Source of the DNA: Planctomycetota bacterium
GTDB lineage: Bacteria; Planctomycetota; GCA-002687715; DRQF01
DNA: 30,433 nucleotides
Direction of reading: 5' to 3'
Assembly: GCA_036479435.1 (NCBI GenBank)
Contig: JAZGFI010000279.1
Location: forward strand, 1 to 30,433
The notes beneath the pieces are model-generated. The model had not been told where the DNA came from. It worked only from the letters and a program-made list of their open reading frames with translations, and ran no database searches. Shown piece by piece: positions 893-17,729 of this stretch. The stretch's first letter is position 1, and each line of letters begins with the position of its first letter. The position numbers and the translations under genes are program-made.

Positions 893-931
893 TAATTCGC
901 CTTGGAATCGAAACGCGTCACTTTCGCTTAT

Positions 932-1042
932 CAACTCGACGAGATGGACAAGGAGTTGGAAAATCGAGGGCATCGCTTGGTGCGATACGTAGACGACGTA
1001 CAGATTTACGTAAATTCAAAGTCGGAGGGTGAGCGAGTGCTG
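932..1042 (+). pseudogene. Remnant of a group II intron reverse transcriptase/maturase (RT motif 5-6 only)
   Basis: Translation 'QLDEMDKELENRGHRLVRYVDDVQIYVNSKSEGERVL' matches the bacterial group II intron RT pattern LDELDKELERRGHRFVRYADDCNIYVRSxxAGERVM. The upstream PQGG motif and the downstream thumb domain are absent. Confidence 0.8.
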
Positions 1043-1054
1043 ACTGCCCAAAGG

Positions 1055-2074
1055 TCAACGTGGGCGCGGGGCTCGCGTACTGAGAAATTCAGCTGAGTAG
1101 TGCCGGGCCAAGGCCTCGCGTTTTGGACCCTCGCCCAACACCGATCCCGCGGTCGCGAGGGCGTCGGCCAAGGTCGCGTTGTTGGCGATGCAAGTCAGCT
1201 CTTGGTCGGTCACAAGGCCCTTGCCGTGGCCGGGATCGAGGATGTGTGACTGCCGTCTTGATGCTTGCAAAAGGTATTTGAAGGTCGCCCCCGATGTCGC
1301 GACGCCACAATGGCTCAAGTGCCGCGTCTCGCCTTGGTAGCCGAGTTGCACGCTCCATCCGGTCTTACCGGGCGGGGCGGCGCCAAGTCTCAGGTCGCCA
1401 CCGGCGTCGATCAAGTACTGGCGATAACCCATCGACTCCAAGACTTTTGCCGCTTCGTCCGCCGCATCGCCTTTGGCGATCCCGCCGAAATCAAAAGCGA
1501 GCCCCGGGCAATCGTGGCGGAGGGTCGAATCTTTGGGCGACCAAGTCAACTTCTCCCAACCAGTTTGGGCCCTGGCGGTCTCGATTTGGGCGGGGCTCAG
1601 CTCTTGTTGAAGAGTTCGTGCCCGCCGCCACTGCTGCGTTAAAGCTCCGAGAGTCGGGTCGAAGGCGCCACCGCTTTGGGCCGCGATCTTAAGGCTCACC
1701 TTGAGAATGCGACTCATGTCTTTGGAAACACGAACTGTCTGACTTTCGGCGGCCGTCGTGAGGCGTCGAGCTTCGCTGTTAGCGCGGTAGTCGCTGAAAA
1801 TACGCTCAAGCCTAGAGATGCGATCAAAGGCCGCGCGGGCAGCGGCCGCGGCCTTTGATTTCGAATTGGCGTAGAGAACGAGGCGAAACTTTACCCCCAT
1901 GAGCCCACGGCTATACTCATAGCGTGTCGGACTTGCGACTTTAGTCGAACTTACGACAGCTGCCGGATTCCTCCGGCAGCTTCCTCCCAACCCCGAGGTA
2001 AAAAGCGCAATGATTAGGGCAAGCAGGACACCAGGTTTCCGCGCTGACCGTTGTCGAGGACTCGTCCTCATCAT
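1055..2074 (-). CDS. apbE: FAD:protein FMN transferase (ApbE family) lipoprotein
   Basis: Motifs MGVKF, 'SGGAFDPTLGAL', 'FDFGGIAKGDAAD', 'IDAGGDL', 'VATSG', 'SHILDP', 'ADALATA'; lipobox-like LGGSC after a hydrophobic stretch. Start chosen at ATG 2074 (GAGGA 8 nt upstream); ATGs at 2089 and 2071 are alternatives. Confidence 0.9.
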   Translation of the reverse strand: MMRTSPRQRSARKPGVLLALIIALFTSGLGGSCRRNPAAVVSSTKVASPTRYEYSRGLMGVKFRLVLYANSKSKAAAAARAAFDRISRLERIFSDYRANSEARRLTTAAESQTVRVSKDMSRILKVSLKIAAQSGGAFDPTLGALTQQWRRARTLQQELSPAQIETARAQTGWEKLTWSPKDSTLRHDCPGLAFDFGGIAKGDAADEAAKVLESMGYRQYLIDAGGDLRLGAAPPGKTGWSVQLGYQGETRHLSHCGVATSGATFKYLLQASRRQSHILDPGHGKGLVTDQELTCIANNATLADALATAGSVLGEGPKREALARHYSAEFLSTRAPRPR

Positions 2075-2948
2075 TTTCGGATTCCTCATCGCTTGTGAGC
2101 CCGCCGAACGCGTCAAGCCCTTCCCGACGAAAAAGGCTGCGGCCAAGGTTAGTGAAGTCGCCATCGACTCGCCCCTAAAAGCGAGTCAACCACCCGCGGC
2201 GATCGTCGTTCCGAAACCATACCTTCAAGTGCTTCCCGGCACGAACGAGAAGATCTACATGGTGCCGGTGCCCGATGGAGCCGGCGGCGGCTTTTGGATG
2301 TCGGCCAAAGAGATTACATGGGATGTCTACGACCACTACATCTACGGCCTTGGCGCTGAACGCGACGTTGAACCGCCGCGTACCGGCGAAGAACCACCCG
2401 AAGGCGAACAAGACGCCATTAGCCGTCCGAGCAAACCCTACGTTCATCCCGATCGCGGCTTTGGCCACGATGGCTTCGCCGCCATCTCTTGCAGCGCTCT
2501 CAACGCGGAGTGTTTTTGTGTGTGGTTCAACGACAAGACGAAGCTCAAGTTTCGCTTGCCGGAAGAAGAAGAGTGGGAGCGGGCTTGTCTGGCCGGTGCC
2601 AAGGGCCCGTTTTACTTCGCCGATGCCAAAAAAATCGGCGACTACGCCTGGTTCACAAAAAACTCCAACGACAGCCCCCAAGCTGTGGGCTCGAAAATCC
2701 CCAACTCCCTTGGCCTGTATGACATGCACGGCAACGCCAGTGAGTGGGTCTACGGCCGGGATGGCGAATTTGTGCAAAAAGGGGGCTGCTTTTGGGACGA
2801 ACCCGAGTTGCTTCACGCCAGCGCGCGCACCGCGTACGATGAATCCTGGCAAATGACTGATCCTCAGCTGCCAAAAAGCCAGTGGTGGCTTTCGGATGCG
2901 CCCTTCGCCGGGCTTCGAATTGTTCGCGATTTCAAAGACGCCAAGTAA
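2010..2948 (+). CDS. FGE/SUMF1-fold (formylglycine-generating enzyme family) lipoprotein, probably non-catalytic
   Basis: 'FRLPEEEEWERACLAG', 'PNSLGLYDMHGNASEW', 'GLRIVR' are FGE-sulfatase fold motifs; lipobox FLIAC; lacks the catalytic CxxxxC of true FGE. Confidence 0.85.
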   Translation: MIRASRTPGFRADRCRGLVLIIFGFLIACEPAERVKPFPTKKAAAKVSEVAIDSPLKASQPPAAIVVPKPYLQVLPGTNEKIYMVPVPDGAGGGFWMSAKEITWDVYDHYIYGLGAERDVEPPRTGEEPPEGEQDAISRPSKPYVHPDRGFGHDGFAAISCSALNAECFCVWFNDKTKLKFRLPEEEEWERACLAGAKGPFYFADAKKIGDYAWFTKNSNDSPQAVGSKIPNSLGLYDMHGNASEWVYGRDGEFVQKGGCFWDEPELLHASARTAYDESWQMTDPQLPKSQWWLSDAPFAGLRIVRDFKDAK

Positions 2949-2958
2949 GGACCCCGTG

Positions 2959-4293
2959 ATGACCGAGACCGTGACCGACCCCAAAAACACCTCGACTGGA
3001 TTCAACCGGCGCCAATTCATGAAGAGTTCGGCCATCATGGCCCCGGCGGTTCTCGCTATCGGCCCTCGCGCCTTTGCGTCCGACGACAGCACTTTGAAGT
3101 TTGGCCTCATCGGTTGTGGTGGCCGCGGCACCGGCGCGGCTAACCAAGCTCTGCGGGCCGACAAAAACAACGTGCTCTGGGCGGTTGCCGATGCCTTTGA
3201 AGATCGTATCGGCGGGGCCATGGGTCTGCTCAGGGCCGAAGGCGAAAAACTCAAAGCCAAACACAACAGCAATCAGATTCAGGTGACACCGGAGCGCCAG
3301 TTCAGCGGTTTCGACGCCTATCAAAAGCTCATCGACTCCGGTGTCGATGTGGTGTTGTTGGCGACACCACCTTACTTCCGGCCCGAGCAGTTGCGCGCGG
3401 CGATTGATGCCGGCAAGCACGTCTTCAGCGAAAAACCCATGGCCGTTGACGGTCCAGGTGTGCGTTCGGTCATGGAATCCGCGAAAATTGCCAAAGAGAA
3501 AAACCTCAGCTTGGTGGCGGGGTTTTGCTGGCGTTTCAAAGAGAACGACCGGCAATTCGTTAAGCGGCTCCACGACGGGATCATCGGCGACATCCGCGCG
3601 GTCTACACTGACTACCTCACCGGCATCCTCAACACCCACCCTCGCAAAGAGGGTTGGACCGATATGGAATTCCAGTTGCGCAACTGGCAGCATTTCAATT
3701 GGCTGAGCGGCGACCACATCGCCGAGCAGGCCGTGCACAGTATCGACAAGATCAACTGGTTCATGAATGATGTCGCCCCTGTCAAAGCGATTTCCGTCGG
3801 GGGACGCCAATCCCGAGCAGATGTTCCTCGGACCGGTGACGTCTTCGACCACTTTGGTGTCATCTTTGAATACGCCGACGGGGCGCGTGGTTTTCACCTT
3901 GCCCGCCAAAGCGCTAACTGCTTTGGACGCAACACCGACTACATCATGGGCTCCAAGGGCATTGCCGATGTCAATAGTTGGGGACCCAAGCACGTGGTGA
4001 CTGGCGAGAACAACTGGACCGGTAAGCGCCGCCATATGAACGGCATGTACCAACAAGAACACGACGAGCTGTTTGCAGCGATCCGAAAGGGTGAGCCCAT
4101 CAACGACGGTGCCTGGATGGCCCAAAGCACCTTAATGGCGATCATGGCCCGGATGTCCGCTTACACCGGTAAGGATGTCAGCTTCGAAGCCGCTCTCAAT
4201 TCCAAAGAAGTGCTCGGGCCCAAAGTCGTCGCCCTTAACGGCGAAGCCCCCCGCATTGCCACCGCGATCCCCGGCCAAACGAAGTTCGCCTGA
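2959..4293 (+). CDS. Tat-exported Gfo/Idh/MocA family oxidoreductase
   Basis: Tat motif FNRRQFMK; Rossmann GLIGCGGRGTG; 'GKHVFSEKP'; RBS TAAGGA at 2946-2951. Confidence 0.9.
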   Translation: MTETVTDPKNTSTGFNRRQFMKSSAIMAPAVLAIGPRAFASDDSTLKFGLIGCGGRGTGAANQALRADKNNVLWAVADAFEDRIGGAMGLLRAEGEKLKAKHNSNQIQVTPERQFSGFDAYQKLIDSGVDVVLLATPPYFRPEQLRAAIDAGKHVFSEKPMAVDGPGVRSVMESAKIAKEKNLSLVAGFCWRFKENDRQFVKRLHDGIIGDIRAVYTDYLTGILNTHPRKEGWTDMEFQLRNWQHFNWLSGDHIAEQAVHSIDKINWFMNDVAPVKAISVGGRQSRADVPRTGDVFDHFGVIFEYADGARGFHLARQSANCFGRNTDYIMGSKGIADVNSWGPKHVVTGENNWTGKRRHMNGMYQQEHDELFAAIRKGEPINDGAWMAQSTLMAIMARMSAYTGKDVSFEAALNSKEVLGPKVVALNGEAPRIATAIPGQTKFA

Positions 4294-5213
4294 TGGACCG
4301 CCGCGATTTCGTCAAATCAAGTTCGTTGGCGGCAGCCGGTGTGCTTGGAACTCCAATCCTAAGCTCCAAGCTTGGCGAACAATCCACGAAACCGACGAGC
4401 GCCCCGTCTCAAGAACTCAAGATCAAGATGGCGGTCAAGTTCGGGATGGTGCAGGGACCCAAAACCGTCCTCGCCCGCTTTGAGCTGCTCAAAAAGTTGG
4501 GATTCGACGGCGTCGAAGTGGGGCGGCCCGCCAAGACGCCGCTTAAAGAACTGATCGCCGCGAGCACCGCCACCGGCTTGCCCATTCACGGCGTGGTGGA
4601 CTCCGACCATTGGAACAACCGATTCTCCGACCCGCGTCCCGAGATTCGAAAAAAGGCCGTCGCGGCCCTAGAAGGCGCCATCCGTGACGCCAAGACCCTC
4701 GGTGCCTCCTCCGTCTTGGTGGTTCCCGGCGTGGTGGACCAATCGGTTCGCTACGACGAGTGCTACCAGCGCTCGCAAACCGAGATACGAAAAGTCCTTC
4801 CCCTCGCCACTGAACTGAACATCAAGATCGCCTTCGAAAACGTCTGGAACAACTTCCTCCTAAGTCCCCTCGAAGCCGCGCGCTATTGCGACGAATTCGA
4901 AAGCCCCTTAGTCGGTTTTTACTTCGACGTCGGCAACGTCATCCGCTACGGCTGGCCCGAGCACTGGATACACGCCCTCGGCCACCGCATCTTCAAACTC
5001 GACGTCAAAGAGTACAGCCGCAAAAAACAGTTCGACGAGGGCCCTTGGAAGGGCTTCAAAGTCAAGATCGGCGACGGCGATTGTAATTGGCCCGGCGTGC
5101 GCAAAGCGCTCAAGGCCATTGGCTATTCCGGCTGGGCCACCGCCGAAGTCGGTGGCAGCGGCGAAGAACGCCTGGCCGACATCAAGGCCCGCATGGACCG
5201 CGCCCTAGGCTAG
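4293..5213 (+). CDS. Tat-exported sugar phosphate isomerase/epimerase (xylose-isomerase-like TIM barrel)
   Basis: Tat motif MDRRDFVK; 'GFDGVE', 'IAFENVWNNFL', 'FDVGN', 'YSGWATAEV'; TGATG coupling to the upstream gene. Confidence 0.88.
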   Translation: MDRRDFVKSSSLAAAGVLGTPILSSKLGEQSTKPTSAPSQELKIKMAVKFGMVQGPKTVLARFELLKKLGFDGVEVGRPAKTPLKELIAASTATGLPIHGVVDSDHWNNRFSDPRPEIRKKAVAALEGAIRDAKTLGASSVLVVPGVVDQSVRYDECYQRSQTEIRKVLPLATELNIKIAFENVWNNFLLSPLEAARYCDEFESPLVGFYFDVGNVIRYGWPEHWIHALGHRIFKLDVKEYSRKKQFDEGPWKGFKVKIGDGDCNWPGVRKALKAIGYSGWATAEVGGSGEERLADIKARMDRALG

Positions 5214-5288: not shown

Positions 5289-5579
5289 TCAGCGTTTTGA
5301 TTCAGAGTTCTTCATGCGTCCCCGCTTCATTTTGATACTTGCGAAGACGATGTCGCTATCGATCTCTTCGCCATTGTCGAGCTGTCGGGCCCCTTCTTCG
5401 ATCAGTTGTTGGGCGCGAGTAATGGCCCTTTGTCGGGTGCCCTCACGATCTTCCAGTAGACCTATGGCCTCACGCACGACGTCGCTCGTGGACTGATAGC
5501 GTCCGGTTTCGACACATCCTGTGAGGAAGGCAGCTTGTTCCGGAGTCAATGAAATACTGATTCGCTTGCGGCTGGTCAT
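5289..5579 (-). CDS. Type II antitoxin, ParD/CopG-Arc-MetJ ribbon-helix-helix family
   Basis: 'ISISLTPEQAAFL…VETGRYQSTSDVVREAIGLLEDRE…IEEG' is the ParD-like signature; RBS AAAGGGG upstream. Confidence 0.85.
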   Translation of the reverse strand: MTSRKRISISLTPEQAAFLTGCVETGRYQSTSDVVREAIGLLEDREGTRQRAITRAQQLIEEGARQLDNGEEIDSDIVFASIKMKRGRMKNSESKR

Positions 5580-5689: not shown

Positions 5690-6703
5690 CTAACCCCTCA
5701 GGGCTTCGCGCTCTCGCTTCAGGAGGTCGGCGACGGCGATGGCGTCGTCGAGGTTGAGGCGGGCGGGGCAGCGGTTTTCTAAGACGTCGATGAAGTGGCG
5801 CACTTCGCCGTCGTAGCCGCTGATGGATTCGAGTTTGACGGGGCTGGAGGCGTCCCCTTCGATTAGGAGCAGTGGGTCTTGGCGGCTCAGGTCATAGTCG
5901 GCGGTGGCGCGCTCGAAGTTGACGAGGTAGCGCATGCGAAAGGGCGTGCCAGGCTGTTGGTCCCAGGCGCCTTCGGCGATGACGTGGGAGGGGCCTTTTG
6001 AGTAGCGGTAGAAGGTCGTGATGTGCAATAAGTCCCCGGCGGATTCGACGGCGTCGGGCTCGCCGAAGAGATGCCGAACGAAGTCGGCGTCGTGGATGTG
6101 AAGGTCGCTTAGGGCTCCGCCGCTTTTTTTGAAGTCCTCGTAGAAACCCTTGGACCAGGTGGGGAGGCTGCCGAGGCGTTGGAAGGTGGCGCTGCGGACG
6201 GCTCCGTAGCGATTGGATTCGACGGCGTCTTTGAGCCAATCCCAACCGGGCCAAAATCGCATGCACATGGCGGGCATGCAGTGGACTCGGTGAGCCTTGG
6301 CCGATTCGGCGAGTCGTCGGATGCGGGCGGAATCTATGTCGACAGGTTTTTCGACCAAGACGTGCTTGCCCGCTTCCATCGCGGAAAGCGTCAGGGCGAC
6401 GTGGGTTGGCGTGGGCGTGCAGAGACTGACGATGTCAACTTGCTCATCGGCGAAGAGTTGGGCTGCGGTTTCGAAGCCACGGACCTGCGCCGGGTCAAAC
6501 ATTCGAGTTGCGGTGGTGTCGCCGAGGTCCAGATTGCCTTGGGCGGGAGGGATGCCCTGGCGGCGGTCTTCGTTGCGATCGGCAACGGCTACCAGTCGAA
6601 CGGGATAACCGGCCGCTTGGGCTGCATTCCAGGCTTCAATATGGGTACGCCCCATGAAGCCGATGCCCACGACGCCAACTCCCCAGATCTTTTGAGAACT
6701 CAA
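5690..6703 (-). CDS. Cytoplasmic Gfo/Idh/MocA family oxidoreductase
   Basis: GVVGIGFMGRTH, 'GKHVLVEKP', 'SGGALSDLHIHDAD'; no signal peptide. Confidence 0.9.
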   Translation of the reverse strand: MSSQKIWGVGVVGIGFMGRTHIEAWNAAQAAGYPVRLVAVADRNEDRRQGIPPAQGNLDLGDTTATRMFDPAQVRGFETAAQLFADEQVDIVSLCTPTPTHVALTLSAMEAGKHVLVEKPVDIDSARIRRLAESAKAHRVHCMPAMCMRFWPGWDWLKDAVESNRYGAVRSATFQRLGSLPTWSKGFYEDFKKSGGALSDLHIHDADFVRHLFGEPDAVESAGDLLHITTFYRYSKGPSHVIAEGAWDQQPGTPFRMRYLVNFERATADYDLSRQDPLLLIEGDASSPVKLESISGYDGEVRHFIDVLENRCPARLNLDDAIAVADLLKREREALRG

Positions 6704-7533
6704 TTCTCAATCCTTGTCACCTCGGCTGCGACCAGGCTGCGCGCGCTCTTGATGTCGAGGCTGCGTTGGTCTCCGGATTCACGTTCGATGATCAGATCGC
6801 ACATGAGCTTGCGGTCGCGAAGGAGGTTGAAGAATCTGGCCCACACCACGGCACCTGTTCCGGCGCAGACTTCTTGCCCCCACTGACCGCTTTCGTCGGT
6901 GTAGAGCGCATCTTTGATGTGGATCTGGCGCACCCGCGGGGCCAGTTTTTCGAGGGCGACAAGGGGATCACCCATGCCGTAGAGAATCATGTTGGCAGGG
7001 TCGAAGTTGATGCCCACGGTGGCGCGGTTCAGTTCGGCCAGCACCCCGACTAAAGTCGAGGCGGTTTCTTGCCCTGTTTCCAAACCGACAGCGACGTCGT
7101 ACTTGGCGAATAAGTCAACGATGGTTTGGATGCGCTCGATCATGGTGCGGCGCAAAGGCGACTTTGGGTCGTGCGGGATGAAGCCGGCGTGGAAAGTCAC
7201 CAGCTTGAGGTCGAGTTTGTGCGCGTGCACGGCGGTCTTTTTGGCGCGGTCGAGGTTTTCGAGCCAATGCTCTTCCGGCCGGAGGCCACCGCTGCGGGCA
7301 ATGGATTCAAGACTTGTGTAGTCCTCGCCCTTAGTCTCCATCATGCCGGACACGATCGTAAGGCCCGCATCATCAAGGGCTCGACGCGTTTCCTCCGGCG
7401 ACCAATCGCCGTCGACGAGCGGGTTGAGGGCCAACTGCACGAACTTGATGTCGCAAGCCTTGAGCTCGCGCGCGAGTTCAACGGGTGATTCGGGTCGAAA
7501 AGACCAAGAACAGGCACCGAGTCGTCGCTGCAC
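6700..7533 (-). CDS. Sugar phosphate isomerase/epimerase (TIM barrel)
   Basis: 'VTFHAGF', 'LETGQET', 'INFDPANMILYG', 'QIHIKDA', 'LIIERE'; GTG start with GGGAG RBS; 4-nt overlap with the next gene. Confidence 0.88.
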   Translation of the reverse strand: MQRRLGACSWSFRPESPVELARELKACDIKFVQLALNPLVDGDWSPEETRRALDDAGLTIVSGMMETKGEDYTSLESIARSGGLRPEEHWLENLDRAKKTAVHAHKLDLKLVTFHAGFIPHDPKSPLRRTMIERIQTIVDLFAKYDVAVGLETGQETASTLVGVLAELNRATVGINFDPANMILYGMGDPLVALEKLAPRVRQIHIKDALYTDESGQWGQEVCAGTGAVVWARFFNLLRDRKLMCDLIIERESGDQRSLDIKSARSLVAAEVTRIEN

Positions 7534-12663: not shown

Positions 12664-12768
12664 CTCCTCGTCTTCAGCGCCGCGTTTCCGGCTTCTTCCC
12701 GACATTCGGTTATTGACCTGGTCCATTGCTTCTCGAGCACGCGTGATGCCGAGTTGTGAAGGAAGGAG
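12664..12768 (+). promoter_or_regulatory. Putative riboswitch expression platform: anti-Shine-Dalgarno / SD pairing
   Basis: CTCCTCGTCTTCA (12664-12676) is nearly complementary to TGAAGGAAGGAG (12757-12768), the RBS of the 12774 gene. No obvious intrinsic terminator lies between aptamer and gene. Confidence 0.45.
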
Positions 12769-12773
12769 CACTC

Positions 12774-13805
12774 ATGATTCGTTTTGCCTCCCAAGTTGTG
12801 TTGATTCTGGCCGTCTGCGTAACCCTCACCGCCGCGGCTTCGGCGCAAGCGCAGTTTGCGACTCAAGTCCTTAGCTTTAATCAAGGCGCCCTTGGCGGCG
12901 GGATTTTTAATCCCGCCAACGTCTTAGGCGGGCCCGATCCCAGCGATTTCCAGGGCGTTTTGAGCCTGGGTGAAGGTGGTGACGTAACCCTCGGTTTTGG
13001 GGTCACGATCGTTGACGGCCCTGGCGCTGACTTCAGCGTTTTTGAAAACGGCTTCGAGTTTCCCAGCGGCAGCGGCATGATTTTCTCTGAGGTGGTCTTC
13101 GTTGAGGTCTCGAGCAACGGCATCGACTTTGCTCGTTTCCCCACGACCTTTGGCGCGCCCTCCGTCCCGCACTTGCAGTTCAATGCGACGGCCATGGGAA
13201 GCTACGACGGCTTTGCCGGCGGCACCCCCGTTCTTGCCGACGTCGGGGTCAACTCCATCGATCCCGCCAACCCCGCGATCTCGGGTGGCGATGCCTTCGA
13301 TTTGGCGCGTTTGGCGAGCGATCCCCTGGTAACGAGCAACCTCGTGGACCTGCAGAACATCAGTTTTCTGCGTTTGGTGGACGTGGTGGCGGGGCAGGCG
13401 GTTGATTCTAGCGGCGTTACGGTCTACGACGATTTCGGCAGCCTTAATGATAGCGCCGACATCAACGCGGTTGCGGTTATCAACCACGCTGGAAACCAAA
13501 GCGCGCTCTCGCCGGATATCGTGATCGACTACGACGCCTTGGGCCGTATCGAAATCACGATCTTTGACCCGAGCGGCCTCGGCGCTCTGGTTTCGAGCAG
13601 CTTTATTCTCAGCGCGAATTTCATTCCGCTGACGACGACGCAGATCGCCCAGTTCTTTGATCTGGTCTCGATCCTTCCCAACGAGATCACCCTCCGCAGC
13701 AAGTTCGTGATTCCGGGCTCAACGATCCCGACTTTGGTCTTGGGCTCTTCAATTGAAAACCTGAGCCAAAAGAAAGTTGCGGCGCAGTTCTCGGTGCAAC
13801 CCTAA
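12774..13805 (+). CDS. Secreted cell-surface protein under B12-riboswitch control; candidate cobalamin-binding protein
   Basis: Sec signal ending ASAQA; motifs 'SLGEGGDVTLGF…DGPGADFSVFENGF…EVVFVEVSSNGIDFARFP…GGDAFDL…ISFLRLVD'; strong RBS AAGGAG. Confidence 0.75.
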   Translation: MIRFASQVVLILAVCVTLTAAASAQAQFATQVLSFNQGALGGGIFNPANVLGGPDPSDFQGVLSLGEGGDVTLGFGVTIVDGPGADFSVFENGFEFPSGSGMIFSEVVFVEVSSNGIDFARFPTTFGAPSVPHLQFNATAMGSYDGFAGGTPVLADVGVNSIDPANPAISGGDAFDLARLASDPLVTSNLVDLQNISFLRLVDVVAGQAVDSSGVTVYDDFGSLNDSADINAVAVINHAGNQSALSPDIVIDYDALGRIEITIFDPSGLGALVSSSFILSANFIPLTTTQIAQFFDLVSILPNEITLRSKFVIPGSTIPTLVLGSSIENLSQKKVAAQFSVQP

Positions 13806-15538
13806 TGAGAAACCTCGACGCTCTGTCGTTCTTTGCGGGGCTTTCGCTCTTTTTTGCGACTTGGCTACCGGCACAACACGTCTTGCTTGAGACGGCGGGC
13901 CAGGTCGGCGGAGAGCGTCGAGGTGCATCCTTGGCCGTCGTCGGCGATCTTGACGGCGACGGTTTTTCAGATTTCCTGCTCGGCACATCCCACAACCGAG
14001 TCGATTTGGTTTCTGGCGGAGACGGTTCGCTGATTCAGAGTTTCTTCGGGGATAGCCCTGGCGATGACTTCGGCGTGAGTGTCGTTGCTTTGGGCGATGT
14101 TGATTTCGACGGTTTTGGCGACTTCGCCATCGGTGCTTCGCAGCGCTCAAGCGGCGGGGCCGGCTACGTTCGAGTGTTCTCGGGAGGGCCGCGGCTGGCA
14201 CTCTACACGCATGGCGGCAACATGCCGGGGGATCGTTTCGGCGAGACTCTGGCTCTGCTCGGCGACGTTAGCCAAAACGGCATCCCCGATTTCGGCGTCG
14301 GGGCTCCGACGGCGGAACACGGCGGTAATCAGGTCGGAGACGTAACGGTTTACGACGGACTAACGGGGTTCTTAGTTCACAGCCTGGTGGGCATCGCGAG
14401 CGGAGATTTTTTCGGCACTGCGATGACGGGCCCCGGCGACCTCGACGGTGACGGCTTTGATGACATTCTCGTTGGAGCGCCGATCGCCAACGTGGTCGGT
14501 GGATCTTTCTTCGGCGGTTTTGGCGGCGTCTATTTGTATTCGGGGCTCAGCGGAAATCTGTTGAGCCAATGGGCAGGTGACAATCCAGACGATGCTTTCG
14601 GCGCCTCCTTAGCCGCACTAGGCGATGCCGACTTCGATGGCGTGGCCGAGTTCGCGGTGGGCATGCCGGGTTTCGATCAAGGCGGTTTCAATGCGGGAGC
14701 CGTTCGAATTCTGCAAATGAACGGGCCGGCCATTCAGACGATCGTTGGCAGTAGCGCGCAAGCGCGTTTTGGCTCGGTGCTTGCCGATGCGGTGGATCTC
14801 AATGGCGATCTGGTTCCCGAAATGTTCATTGGTTCGCCCGATTACAGTGGGGTCGCGCCGGCAAGCGGTCGCCTCGAAGTTTTCACGCCCTTGTTGCAGG
14901 CGAACTTTTGGCAGATCGATGGCGATGTTGTGTTCGGGAACATGGGGGCCGCCTTTTGTGCCGCCGACTTCGATGGTGACGGCTTGATCGAAGTGGCGGT
15001 GGCGGAGCCAGGAGCCGGCAGTCCGCTGGCATCAGGGCGTGTCCGTGTTTTTGGCGTGGAACGTGTTCTCGGTCCGGCGGCGCAAAGCCGCGTCGAAGAT
15101 TTAGGCGGCGATCGTGAAGACGTCCTTTTTGTGAACGGTTCCGCTGGAGGCGGAGCGCGCCGGGTCGACTTGTCTCCTTTGGAGTCTTTCCAAGTTGAGG
15201 TGGCGCAACCCAGTGCCAACGCGACCCCGGCGAGGTTCGTCCTTTTCGGCGTGATTGCGCGGCCGCGTTTCCACGATGCCTTTCCCTTGCCTTTAGGTTT
15301 GGGAGCGATGGCCTTTCCGCCCTGTGCCTTGCTTCCGAGTGCCGAGCCGACTTTGTTCGTGGTTGCTGACACGATCGGGGGCATGGCTTGCACACCCTTG
15401 GTCGTAGCCAGCCCCGCTCCATGGAGTGTCTTGGCCGGAGGGATCGCCTTTTCCGCCAGCTACACTCTGCAAGCGGTCATTGAAGAACAGCCAGGACAAC
15501 TCAAAGTTAGCAACGGGATCTTGATCCGCGTCTTGTGA
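13805..15538 (+). CDS. Secreted integrin-alpha-like FG-GAP seven-bladed β-propeller protein with a C-terminal domain
   Basis: Signal peptide; seven FG-GAP repeats with DxDxDG-type loops (GDLDGDG, GDVDFDG, GDVSQNG, GDLDGDG, GDADFDG, VDLNGDL, ADFDGDG); TAATG coupling with the upstream gene. Confidence 0.88.
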   Translation: MRNLDALSFFAGLSLFFATWLPAQHVLLETAGQVGGERRGASLAVVGDLDGDGFSDFLLGTSHNRVDLVSGGDGSLIQSFFGDSPGDDFGVSVVALGDVDFDGFGDFAIGASQRSSGGAGYVRVFSGGPRLALYTHGGNMPGDRFGETLALLGDVSQNGIPDFGVGAPTAEHGGNQVGDVTVYDGLTGFLVHSLVGIASGDFFGTAMTGPGDLDGDGFDDILVGAPIANVVGGSFFGGFGGVYLYSGLSGNLLSQWAGDNPDDAFGASLAALGDADFDGVAEFAVGMPGFDQGGFNAGAVRILQMNGPAIQTIVGSSAQARFGSVLADAVDLNGDLVPEMFIGSPDYSGVAPASGRLEVFTPLLQANFWQIDGDVVFGNMGAAFCAADFDGDGLIEVAVAEPGAGSPLASGRVRVFGVERVLGPAAQSRVEDLGGDREDVLFVNGSAGGGARRVDLSPLESFQVEVAQPSANATPARFVLFGVIARPRFHDAFPLPLGLGAMAFPPCALLPSAEPTLFVVADTIGGMACTPLVVASPAPWSVLAGGIAFSASYTLQAVIEEQPGQLKVSNGILIRVL

Positions 15539-15615
15539 ACGCGGTGTTGATCCGCGTTCTGTAAACGGGATCTTGATCCGCGTTCTGTAAACGGGATCTT
15601 AATCCGCGTTCTGTA
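15512..15615 (+). repeat. Tandem repeat, 4 x 26 bp (consensus AACGGGATCTTGATCCGCGTTCTGTA), each unit self-complementary
   Basis: Units start at 15512, 15538, 15564 and 15590; unit 1 is the last 8 codons and stop of the FG-GAP gene. Confidence 0.92.
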
Positions 15616-15794
15616 GACATGGTGCCAACCCATCTTGTTCAACTCAGAGCCGTTTTGAGTTTCATGCCAAGCTGAAGTCCCTTAGGAGTAAAGTCTTGCG
15701 GGCGACGCGGCTAAGCGCGCGGGCCGAAGCCGACTATCGCCTTCGAGCCAGCGCCTAAGACTGATAGAGTGTGGCTCACCGACGAGGTATCCCG

Positions 15795-17729
15795 ATGAGA
15801 AGCCCACGATTCATGTCCCTTTCTTGCCGAGTTTTTCTAATCGTCTGCCTCGGCACCTTGGGTCTGAGTTGCGTCTCATCGTCAGTTCGCGCCCAGTTTT
15901 TTCCGACCGGGGTGGTGGCAGAGAACATGAGCCCTTCGGGCAGCCTCGTGCGGCCCATTGCCATGGAGTTCTTGCCAGACGGCAGGCTCTTAATCGCCGA
16001 GCATCACAGTGGTCGGATCTTGAGCTGGTCGCGCGGTGCCCTTCGGACTGTGGGCACCGTTGAGAACCTCGTGAACGGGCTAGAACATGGATTGCTTGGG
16101 ATGGCGCTGCACCCGCAGTTTCCACGACGGCCTTTCCTCTATCTCTACTTGACTCACGACATCGGTGGTGGCGTTCCGGATAAGCGCGTTGTTCGCTATC
16201 GCCTAAAGGGAGACTTGGCTTTTGGGGGCCAAGGCGAGTTGGAGATGGTCGAGCGCTACGAAGTGCTGACTGGTATCCCGGCTCCTGTCGATTTGCACGA
16301 CGGTGGTGGCTTGCGTTTTGGGCCCGACGGATGCCTCTACCTTGCGGTTGGCGATGCGACGATGTCCTGCGAGGCGCAGAACGTGAACTCGCCATTCGGG
16401 AAGATCCTGCGCATGGATGTGCGCGGTTTGCCAAGGTCAGGCCCCCCTCCGCCAATCCTTGATCTTGTTCCGGCCGGAGGTAACCCTCTCGGCGGATCGA
16501 CGGACATCTCGCAGCTCGTCTTCGCGATGGGCCTGCGCAACCCCTTTCGCTTCAGCATCGATCCCCTTAGCGGTACCCTCATCATCGCTGACGTTGGCGA
16601 GAACACTTGGGTAGAGATCAATTTTTGCACCGGCGGCGAGAATTTCGGGTGGCCCTGGTTTGAAGGTCCCGCTCCTTTTTCGACTTGCCCCCCGGGACCG
16701 GTTCCCAGCAACTTGACGGCCCCCGTTGTTGCGGGCGCGCATGGCGGCAGCTTGAGCTTTGCCGCGGCCGTGCCCTTTGCTGGTATCTACCACAACCGTT
16801 ACGGCGCCCGCTTTAACTTTGGCCCGGCTTATGAAGGTTCGCTGTTTATTGCCGACCTGGGGATTCCCACCGACATTTTTCGCTTGGATTTCGACGGTCA
16901 GGATTGGAACATCGCGCCCGCGCTGCCCGGGCAGGCCAACCCGAACGTTTGGGGTTTTTCGTTGTTTCCGACGGACTGCCAGATCGGCCCCGACGGCGCT
17001 TTTTGGCAGCTGACATTCCTCGACGGTGATGTGCGTCGGACGCGCCCCGAGGCCGGTGGCACTCAGTTGACGATCAAGAGCGGTCAAAGCCAAAAAGGCA
17101 ACGCGGGTACCCTGTCCTTCGTGCCCATGGAAGTCGAGCTGACGGATCTCAACAATCAAGCCCTCGCTAACGAGATCGTGTTTTTCACCATCGAACGTGG
17201 GGGCGGCCAGATCACGGCGTCGGCTCTGACGGATGCCAATGGCCGGGCGACGGTCTCCTATCGATTTTCGGACACTTGGACCGGAGAGCACCCCGAGATC
17301 ATCGCCTGGCACGAGGGCGGTGAGCCCCAACGGTTTTCTTTTGAATGGCGTGGCTTAGAGACCCTGCTCGCCACCGCCGCGAAGTACTTGTTCAAATTTC
17401 GGCACAGCGAAGCGAACTCGCCGGTGGTTGCGGTGATCGACATCGCGCGCACGACGCCCGTGCTTACGGTACCCGCGGGAGAAATTTGGACGAGTTTACT
17501 AGCTCCACTACCGAGCTTGATCGTCTTGGGTGATGGTTTTGGATTTGTCGGTCCGCAGAACAGAGGTTTCGTGACGGATGCCGCGGGCCAACGCCTGATC
17601 GAGTTCAAGGTGCCGCCGACTTTGACGGGACAAGTCATCATTCAAGCCTACGCGATCGACTTCGCGGCGAGCACGGCCGAAGAAGTCACGGTTTCCAATC
17701 CGGTGACGCTGACGTTGATCAGGCGCTAA
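15795..17729 (+). CDS. Secreted PQQ-dependent glucose/sorbosone dehydrogenase-like (GSDH) β-propeller with an Ig-like (Big_1-type) domain and a C-terminal domain
   Basis: 'FLPDGRLLIAE', 'EHGLLGMALHPQF', 'HDGGGLRFGPDG', 'GLRNPFRF', 'NFGWP'; Ig-like 'SGQSQKG…VELTD…TDANGRATV'. Start at ATG 15795 (GAGG RBS); 15771 and 15813 are alternatives. Confidence 0.85.
   Translation: MRSPRFMSLSCRVFLIVCLGTLGLSCVSSSVRAQFFPTGVVAENMSPSGSLVRPIAMEFLPDGRLLIAEHHSGRILSWSRGALRTVGTVENLVNGLEHGLLGMALHPQFPRRPFLYLYLTHDIGGGVPDKRVVRYRLKGDLAFGGQGELEMVERYEVLTGIPAPVDLHDGGGLRFGPDGCLYLAVGDATMSCEAQNVNSPFGKILRMDVRGLPRSGPPPPILDLVPAGGNPLGGSTDISQLVFAMGLRNPFRFSIDPLSGTLIIADVGENTWVEINFCTGGENFGWPWFEGPAPFSTCPPGPVPSNLTAPVVAGAHGGSLSFAAAVPFAGIYHNRYGARFNFGPAYEGSLFIADLGIPTDIFRLDFDGQDWNIAPALPGQANPNVWGFSLFPTDCQIGPDGAFWQLTFLDGDVRRTRPEAGGTQLTIKSGQSQKGNAGTLSFVPMEVELTDLNNQALANEIVFFTIERGGGQITASALTDANGRATVSYRFSDTWTGEHPEIIAWHEGGEPQRFSFEWRGLETLLATAAKYLFKFRHSEANSPVVAVIDIARTTPVLTVPAGEIWTSLLAPLPSLIVLGDGFGFVGPQNRGFVTDAAGQRLIEFKVPPTLTGQVIIQAYAIDFAASTAEEVTVSNPVTLTLIRR

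Follow-up and report, generated by a model that had tools for sequence, protein, structure and literature searches.

A candidate flavinylated FGE-fold protein with a dedicated ApbE as a predicted electron relay for Tat-exported Gfo/Idh/MocA dehydrogenases

What does an ApbE modify when no classical substrate is encoded beside it? This question is raised by a 30,433-nucleotide stretch of Planctomycetota DNA (contig JAZGFI010000279.1 of assembly GCA_036479435.1, the whole of which we call the window), in which apbE adjoins genes for a protein of the formylglycine-generating enzyme (FGE)-sulfatase fold, a Gfo/Idh/MocA oxidoreductase and a TIM barrel. ApbE attaches flavin mononucleotide (FMN) to Ser or Thr in D-x-x-[ST]-G-A-[ST] motifs. 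Among 27 window open reading frames (ORFs) scanned, none matched FMN_bind or NqrB/RnfD domains, which bears out the absence of a classical substrate gene noted in an original prediction made from the sequence. That prediction proposed that the FGE-fold protein is a flavinylated carrier that re-oxidises the cofactor of the exported dehydrogenase, an interpretation that our comparison of homologues largely supports. The FGE-fold protein is probably a flavinylation target that has not been described before, and it has a predicted partner; we hold with moderate confidence that ApbE, the FGE-fold protein and the oxidoreductase form a three-part extracytoplasmic redox chain, in which an FMN relay would re-oxidise periplasmic reduced nicotinamide adenine dinucleotide (NADH).

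A conserved candidate flavinylation site

The apbE gene (1055–2074, minus strand; longest ORF from 2164; PF02424, E = 1e-55) probably starts at 2074 or 2071, with a GAGGA Shine–Dalgarno-like site ahead, and encodes a signal peptide with LGGSC. Head to head with it lies the gene for the C-type-lectin-like FGE-fold protein (2010–2948, plus strand; PF03781, E = 4.5e-17), the predicted covalent-FMN relay. The codons for the two signal peptides overlap by about 62–65 nucleotides (2010–2074), so that each promoter must lie within the other gene; a scan for promoters and terminators found nothing above shuffled sequence. By crude start calling, such an overlap also occurs in 13 of the 24 divergent homologous apbE/FGE pairs with callable starts (6 of 30 divergent pairs were uncallable). 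Downstream on the plus strand follow the NAD-type Gfo/Idh/MocA oxidoreductase (2959–4293; longest ORF from 2896; PF01408/PF22725; RRQF, GCGGRG, EKP and E-x3-H) and the accessory AP_endonuc_2 TIM barrel of the keto-sugar isomerase/lyase type (4293–5213; PF01261; RRDF), both bearing motifs for export by twin-arginine translocation (Tat). All four predicted genes are present, and the description as interlocked is apt, the reading frames of apbE and the FGE-fold gene overlapping head to head.

The candidate acceptor motif, DAISRPS, lies exactly where it had been predicted, at nucleotides 2412–2432 (plus strand; residues D135–S141, with the acceptor S141 at 2430–2432). We aligned 407 homologous sequences and kept the 274 that retained a C-terminal DPQxP signature (D284-P-Q-L-P288 in the window copy; 2859–2873, plus strand); removing 2 gapped rows and 1 duplicate left 271. 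The family was therefore defined by columns in a region other than the motif. The column of S141 holds Ser in 153 rows and Thr in 118, that is, Ser or Thr in 271 of 271, and because it is conserved at one register, the motif goes beyond chance. Asp occupies position −6 in 260 rows, position −3 is Thr (125), Ser (106) or Ala (37), and Arg-Pro precedes the acceptor in 208. The window copy is not canonical, but at the same columns 7 of the 271 homologues carry the canonical D-x-x-[ST]-G-A-[ST]. Where both Arg and Pro are replaced, the replacement is Gly-Ala in 8 of 10 rows and Ser-Ala in the other 2, against a background share of Gly-Ala of about 1% among the [ST]-x-x-[ST] of the genome. With the motif columns left out, a FastTree tree of 129 rows required four changes for the x-A state; GAT appeared in one 10-row clade and separately in L118, placing the switch to canonical GA[ST] in at least two places.

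This pattern, an invariant acceptor and a switch to the canonical form at the same columns, favours the proposal that DAISRPS is a variant acceptor site. Loss of the motif in apbE-linked homologues had been set beforehand as the finding that would refute it; the motif is conserved there, and is in fact family-wide rather than limited to apbE-adjacent copies. An association of x-A motifs with loci where the dedicated apbE is not linked (1 of 5 versus 53 of 82) is not claimed, the cases being few and clustered. In two structure predictions the motif sits in a low-confidence loop, with predicted local distance difference test (pLDDT) values of 63–78 against mostly above 90 for the core. The protein thus shares several traits with known substrates: a signal peptide, an invariant Ser/Thr in a low-pLDDT loop and a co-occurring apbE. 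Only PF03781 matches the domain, in 67 of 67 members, with no match to the known acceptor domains (FMN_bind, DUF2271, DUF3570, NqrB/RnfD). From these comparisons, covalent FMN on the FGE-fold protein appears quite probable.

The closest fold matches were TvpA (Z = 25.4, root-mean-square deviation 2.1 over 193 aligned residues) and PvdO (Z = 22.6, 2.5 over 201). The lone Cys of the FGE core region is Ser in 191 of 271 rows; no Cys is invariant, and the protein has neither a conserved catalytic Cys nor the conserved copper-binding Cys pair. The protein had been called a non-catalytic FGE-fold lipoprotein, and the first part of this description agrees with the family. The second fits the window copy, which has a signal peptide and a lipobox, LIAC, at C29; the pattern recurs in just 18 of 140 called family proteins, so that the lipid anchor is a local feature. 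By its sequence the protein is neither a catalytic FGE nor PvdO, its score against NF051459 being 39.9 bits for a cut-off of 500.

A search of the ESM Atlas returned generic FGE clusters alone, and a profile search of cluster representatives was swamped by multi-domain FGE proteins and added few family members. A divergent paralogue group (L024, L052–L054) carries DAV[TS]KPS and DPNVPP beside a distant Gfo, without an adjacent apbE. Some family members of about 720 residues (P0122–P0133, P0135) have a long N-terminal region, FG-GAP-like in some, which replaces the cytochrome domain of others described below.

A dedicated ApbE lineage

The window ApbE scores 189 bits against PF02424 (cut-off 25.6), and its ATSG, SHILDP and ADALA segments align with the Ser-His-Asp triad of solved ApbEs. 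This triad is described in the available text of PMC12052999, in whose V. cholerae numbering the residues are spaced by 16 and 28, versus 16 and 27 here. The genome has two apbE genes. The second adjoins an nqr operon on contig C172, whose NqrC and NqrB carry the canonical DGISGAT and DGATGAT, and falls in a different ApbE clade; the window apbE is thus a spare paralogue, nqr having its own.

In a quick IQ-TREE phylogeny of 115 ApbE domains, which covered most but not all ApbEs of the searched genomes, the window ApbE fell within a clade of 50 rows (Shimodaira–Hasegawa-like approximate likelihood ratio support 99). An FGE-fold gene stands within 2 kb of 45 of these, and at a greater distance in the same locus from 1 more. 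Of the remaining four, 3 belong to genomes that carry the family at another site, and 1 (G010) borders a contig edge in a genome that yielded no family member. The clade is a dedicated, FGE-linked ApbE lineage. It retains the triad (Ser 49/50, His 50/50, Asp 49/50) and has a specific Trp-Arg in 50 of 50 members versus 5 of the 65 others, which mostly have Trp-Gly. Five further FGE-linked ApbEs, from Bacteroidota, nest among conventional ApbEs, and from the tree the linkage seems to have arisen twice, with a separate recruitment into the same operon in Bacteroidota. Convergence of these five on Trp-Arg was considered and rejected, as they keep a W-G-F-G loop. No ApbE–FGE fusion was found among 16 longer homologues, in what was a weak search.

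Across loci with enough flanking sequence, apbE lies within 2 kb of the family gene in 54 of 87; 28 more loci were too short. The pairs come in four arrangements (30, 17, 6 and 2 of 55). Among 61 genomes of the same phylum, all 22 with the family have apbE, as do 22 of the 39 without the family; overall, apbE is present in all 42 family-positive genomes checked, including 19 from other phyla and G074. Family presence was scored by alignment of up to 29 candidates per genome; a single-protein search had missed G001, G005 and G044. Relatives occur in Planctomycetota (by the names of the closest homologues), Bacteroidota and Verrucomicrobiota. In 19 of 40 family-positive genomes we found apbE but no FMN_bind, DUF2271, DUF3570 or full-length NqrB/RnfD, 14 of them without even a weak match, counts that come from incomplete assemblies and include G019 and G022, whose ApbE groups with nqr-linked ones. 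In six genomes (G001, G005, G015, G020, G078 and G288) the sole apbE found sits in this locus, and the known substrate families were not found.

A predicted complex with the exported Gfo

A Gfo of the window subfamily lies directly downstream of the family gene in 73 of 115 loci, and 71 of these proteins have a twin-arginine motif. Across 80 genomes, the FGE-family profile matched 24; the Gfo profile matched 23, all of them among those 24. The one FGE match without Gfo lacks the family signature, and 56 genomes had neither. A correlation of distances between the FGE and Gfo alignments (rho = 0.42) is explained by shared ancestry and is not used as evidence.

GCGGRG, EKP and the catalytic His are all retained in the window Gfo. 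Its best relatives among solved structures are only inositol dehydrogenases, which are distant (E = 4e-26 by profile), and the protein scores 21.2 bits against a cut-off of 750 for the BT_2158 family of glycoside 3-dehydrogenases; the substrate is probably a sugar, glycoside or cyclitol. A second Gfo of the same subfamily is encoded in this genome (G000:C274:5335–6444, L241), on a 12-kb contig that carries neither an FGE-fold nor an apbE gene, and one relay may serve several dehydrogenases.

When Gfo was co-folded with the FGE domain, with NAD and FMN riding along, the pair scored 0.75 versus 0.00 for the best control; in a calibration that holds only roughly here, this mark was reached by 116 of 157 solved pairs versus 2 of 215 mismatched pairs. 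The runs agreed in at least 82% of contacts, with a partner pLDDT of at least 85. In the models, K142, Y144–H146, R149–F151 and P285–P288 of the FGE domain touch the GRGTGAAN loop of the Gfo Rossmann fold. The contacts of P285–P288, those of lowest predicted error, would explain the DPQLP signature as a docking loop. In the co-fold, S141 lies at the margin of the NAD face of Gfo, and the loop after it lies at the NAD site. PDB searches returned no solved complex of this kind. On this modelling, binding of the FGE-fold protein to Gfo is likely. The exported Gfo had been proposed as the redox partner, a role strengthened by the shared 23 of 80 genomes, the predicted docking at the NAD face and the haem fusions of the family.

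In these fusions, the FGE domain is joined to one or two Planctomycete cytochrome c domains (P0086, P0134; PF07635 in 9 of the first 120 matches) or, in L176, to a NapC/NirT tetrahaem cytochrome, with the motif DAISGPT. In L126 it is fused to two DUF1080 (3-keto-disaccharide hydrolase) domains. DUF1080 was absent among the scanned window ORFs, and 7 matches lie elsewhere in the genome. The TIM barrel had also been counted as part of the module. It is present and has the Tat-type RRDF, but just 5 of 115 loci contain a close homologue, with a different TIM family in 26, leaving ApbE, the FGE-fold protein and Gfo as the core. It gave no PDB match at 1e-8.

Proposed mechanism

We propose that the dedicated ApbE uses flavin adenine dinucleotide to attach FMN to S141, in a motif, D-x-x-[STA]-R-P-[ST], that comparative data suggest is a variant of D-x-x-[ST]-G-A-[ST]. 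The FGE-fold flavoprotein would dock on the NAD-binding face of the Tat-exported Gfo and place its flavin beside a tightly held nucleotide, a position suggested by S141 lying beside the predicted interface. Oxidation of a sugar, glycoside or cyclitol by Gfo would yield a keto product and bound NADH, whose hydride would pass to FMN and then as single electrons to a c-type cytochrome or a quinone-linked haem protein. Because NADH gives up electrons in pairs and haem accepts them one at a time, a flavin, the usual two-to-one-electron converter, is needed between them; transfer from NADH to quinone is downhill. The haem acceptor is fused to the FGE domain in some homologues. In this way an NAD enzyme without access to the NAD pool of the cytoplasm would become a respiratory dehydrogenase, while the TIM barrel and DUF1080-type enzymes would process the keto-sugar.

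Several observations weigh against this proposal. Asp is missing at −6 in 11 of 271 rows and Ser/Thr at −3 in 40, and D-x5-[ST] spacing alone is weak, recurring in the same protein (DPQLPKS) and in Gfo (DVVxLAT). Gly-to-Ala and Ala-to-Val changes halve the flavinylation of a model substrate, as summarised in the available text of PMC12052999, so that Arg-Pro is a drastic change. No apbE lies within 2 kb in 33 of 87 loci, and the genome counts include kin that are not independent of one another; the search alignments drew on 12 of the 23 double-positive genomes and not on the other 11. The five ApbEs of the second recruitment stand beside RPT proteins with an ordinary W-G-F-G, so a specialised ApbE does not explain every case, and G013, G019, G021 and G022 have the family but no dedicated-clade ApbE among those placed. 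The co-fold used other alignments and ligands than its calibration. The window FGE-fold protein lacks a haem motif, and a search of the family's neighbours found no conserved membrane partner. Finally, members of a third ApbE clade, which apparently lack a signal peptide, are flanked on one or both sides by Tat-type Gfo genes, and no FGE gene is visible there; ApbE–Gfo links can therefore exist without the FGE-fold protein.

The loci of this third clade are L195–L197, L202–L206, L209 and L214 (G011–G014, G017, G019, G021, G022, G024 and G173). One type of Gfo linked to it shows a conserved [DN]-A-T loop and reads EAP rather than EKP; the ApbE frame of L202 and L203 continues, with no stop, into that Gfo, including its twin-arginine motif. 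The clade is possibly a second undescribed ApbE–Gfo system, a parallel solution. In L213 (2129–5801), apbE is followed by a DoxX-like membrane protein (a weak match) and a Gfo with a twin-arginine-like motif, another possible route from Gfo to quinone.

Alternative explanations

The third clade bears on the best placed alternative, in which the FGE-fold protein is a non-flavinylated partner of Gfo, for lectin-like sugar binding or anchoring, its Ser/Thr has a structural role or serves to bind a free cofactor, and the target of ApbE is Gfo or another protein. The two in-frame ApbE–Gfo loci fit this, as do the C-type-lectin-like fold, one used for ligand binding, the departure of Arg-Pro from the tested motif and an FGE–Gfo link (23 of 23 genomes) that is tighter than apbE adjacency (54 of 87 loci). 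It would, however, leave unexplained the Gly-Ala or Ser-Ala in 10 of 10 double substitutions, the Ser/Thr exchange at one column and the dedicated ApbE clade. As for ApbE acting on Gfo, no column of the Gfo alignment holds a G-A-type motif, and D-x5-[ST] occurs at a single column, in the DVVxLAT strand, which precedes a conserved Pro-Pro and which we take to be part of the Gfo Rossmann core. We therefore regard this explanation as unlikely.

A second alternative accepts flavinylation and binding but has the relay merely reset the bound NAD of a redox-neutral oxidise–eliminate–hydrate–reduce cycle of glycoside cleavage, or run in reverse on a keto-sugar. NapC/NirT proteins normally carry electrons outward from quinol, which favours the reverse direction, whereas quinol-to-NAD transfer is strongly uphill by established potentials. 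The DUF1080 fusion and TIM-barrel neighbours fit a pathway of the glycoside cleavage type, and Tat Gfo enzymes that do not exchange their NAD use 3-ketoglucose to recycle it, according to the available text of 10.1101/2024.03.25.586180. The window Gfo, however, falls far below the BT_2158 cut-off (21 versus 750 bits), and a dedicated maturase with haem fusions suggests flux rather than occasional priming, making this alternative rather improbable.

That adjacency is incidental and the window ApbE serves Nqr or other canonical substrates encoded elsewhere is very improbable: the genome does have nqr and 13 canonical-motif matches in its long ORFs, most of them probably chance, but nqr has its own apbE of a different clade, the linkage recurs in four arrangements and two ApbE lineages, and in the six genomes named above no apbE was found outside this locus.

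Neighbouring genes

A second Gfo and TIM-barrel pair, identified by Pfam and lacking a Tat motif, lies convergent to the operon (5690–7533, minus strand). Such a pair is near a family gene in 5 of 115 loci, all close relatives, and is a possible cytoplasmic leg of the same sugar pathway. Between it and the operon is a ParD-type antitoxin gene (5289–5579, minus strand), with no toxin gene recognised among the adjacent scanned ORFs. On the other side, a 54-codon reverse transcriptase remnant with YVDD (896–1057, plus strand) ends at the apbE stop; its best match is a group II intron reverse transcriptase/maturase (E = 1e-7). Three exported-looking genes at 12756–17729 (plus strand) encode an LIC_13355-like lipoprotein (weak match), an FG-GAP repeat protein and a pyrroloquinoline quinone (PQQ)-type glucose/sorbosone dehydrogenase with an immunoglobulin-like domain.

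Discussion

The predicted relay resembles known ApbE-flavinylated carriers (FMN_bind in NqrC/RnfG/NosR; DUF2271 and DUF3570; Flavodoxin_4 and FMN_red variants; as listed in the available text of PMC8238504 and PMC11334425) in being exported with an intact apbE adjacent, in its D-x5-[ST] acceptor in a flexible loop, in its orphan-apbE context and in the exact canonical motif of some homologues. It differs from them in its FGE/C-type-lectin fold, in Arg-Pro for Gly-Ala in 208 of 271 rows, in its dedicated ApbE clade and in its NAD-type Gfo partner. FGE and Gfo are not mentioned in the available text of either source, whose large gene-cluster tables, probably outside this check, could list such a context. 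A literature search that lacked most subscription papers found no publication that connects ApbE with an FGE-fold or Gfo protein, and the same literature gave no flavinylation of any Cys-less FGE-sulfatase domain protein. Among such proteins (PvdO, TvpA, PorK/GldK, CarF), which have the same fold, PvdO is needed for a periplasmic oxidation and was purified without cofactor, according to the available text of PMC6206403.

Clusters for 3-ketoglycosides (BT2156–2159, AL1–4; also Gul) and glucose-fructose oxidoreductase likewise have a Tat Gfo, TIM-barrel and DUF1080 partners and bound NAD(P) that needs periplasmic recycling (available texts of 10.1101/2024.03.25.586180 and PMC8121099). How the bound NAD of the 3-ketoglycoside systems is re-oxidised is left open there, as it is in the available text of PMC9007349. 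They use another Gfo subfamily and recycle NAD on a second sugar, whereas a flavin/haem relay is predicted here. LacABC and ThuAB are flavoprotein dehydrogenases of another family, whereas the window system would use NAD and ApbE-attached FMN. What these periplasmic glycoside 3-dehydrogenases share with it is periplasmic sugar oxidation coupled to cytochrome c (PMC9007349 and PMC8121099, in their available text).

That the family represents a widespread, undescribed wiring of extracytoplasmic NAD-dependent dehydrogenases to respiration, through FMN attached by a dedicated ApbE at an R-P motif and docking at the NAD site of Gfo, is a view to which we lean slightly. The available text of 10.1101/2024.03.25.586180 leaves open the re-oxidation of periplasmic Gfo with non-exchanging NAD, pointing to 'specialized proteins, such as cytochromes', and that of PMC8238504 leaves open the targets of the remaining orphan apbE genes, in 4% of genomes. 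The module described here is one testable answer to both. If it is correct, ApbE biology would gain a new acceptor fold and motif, and flavin-tagging an ApbE/tag pair that may be orthogonal. Proteins of a subfamily that commonly bears the annotation formylglycine-generating enzyme would also acquire a function. The module would further explain how exported NAD-type sugar dehydrogenases shed their electrons outside the cytoplasm.

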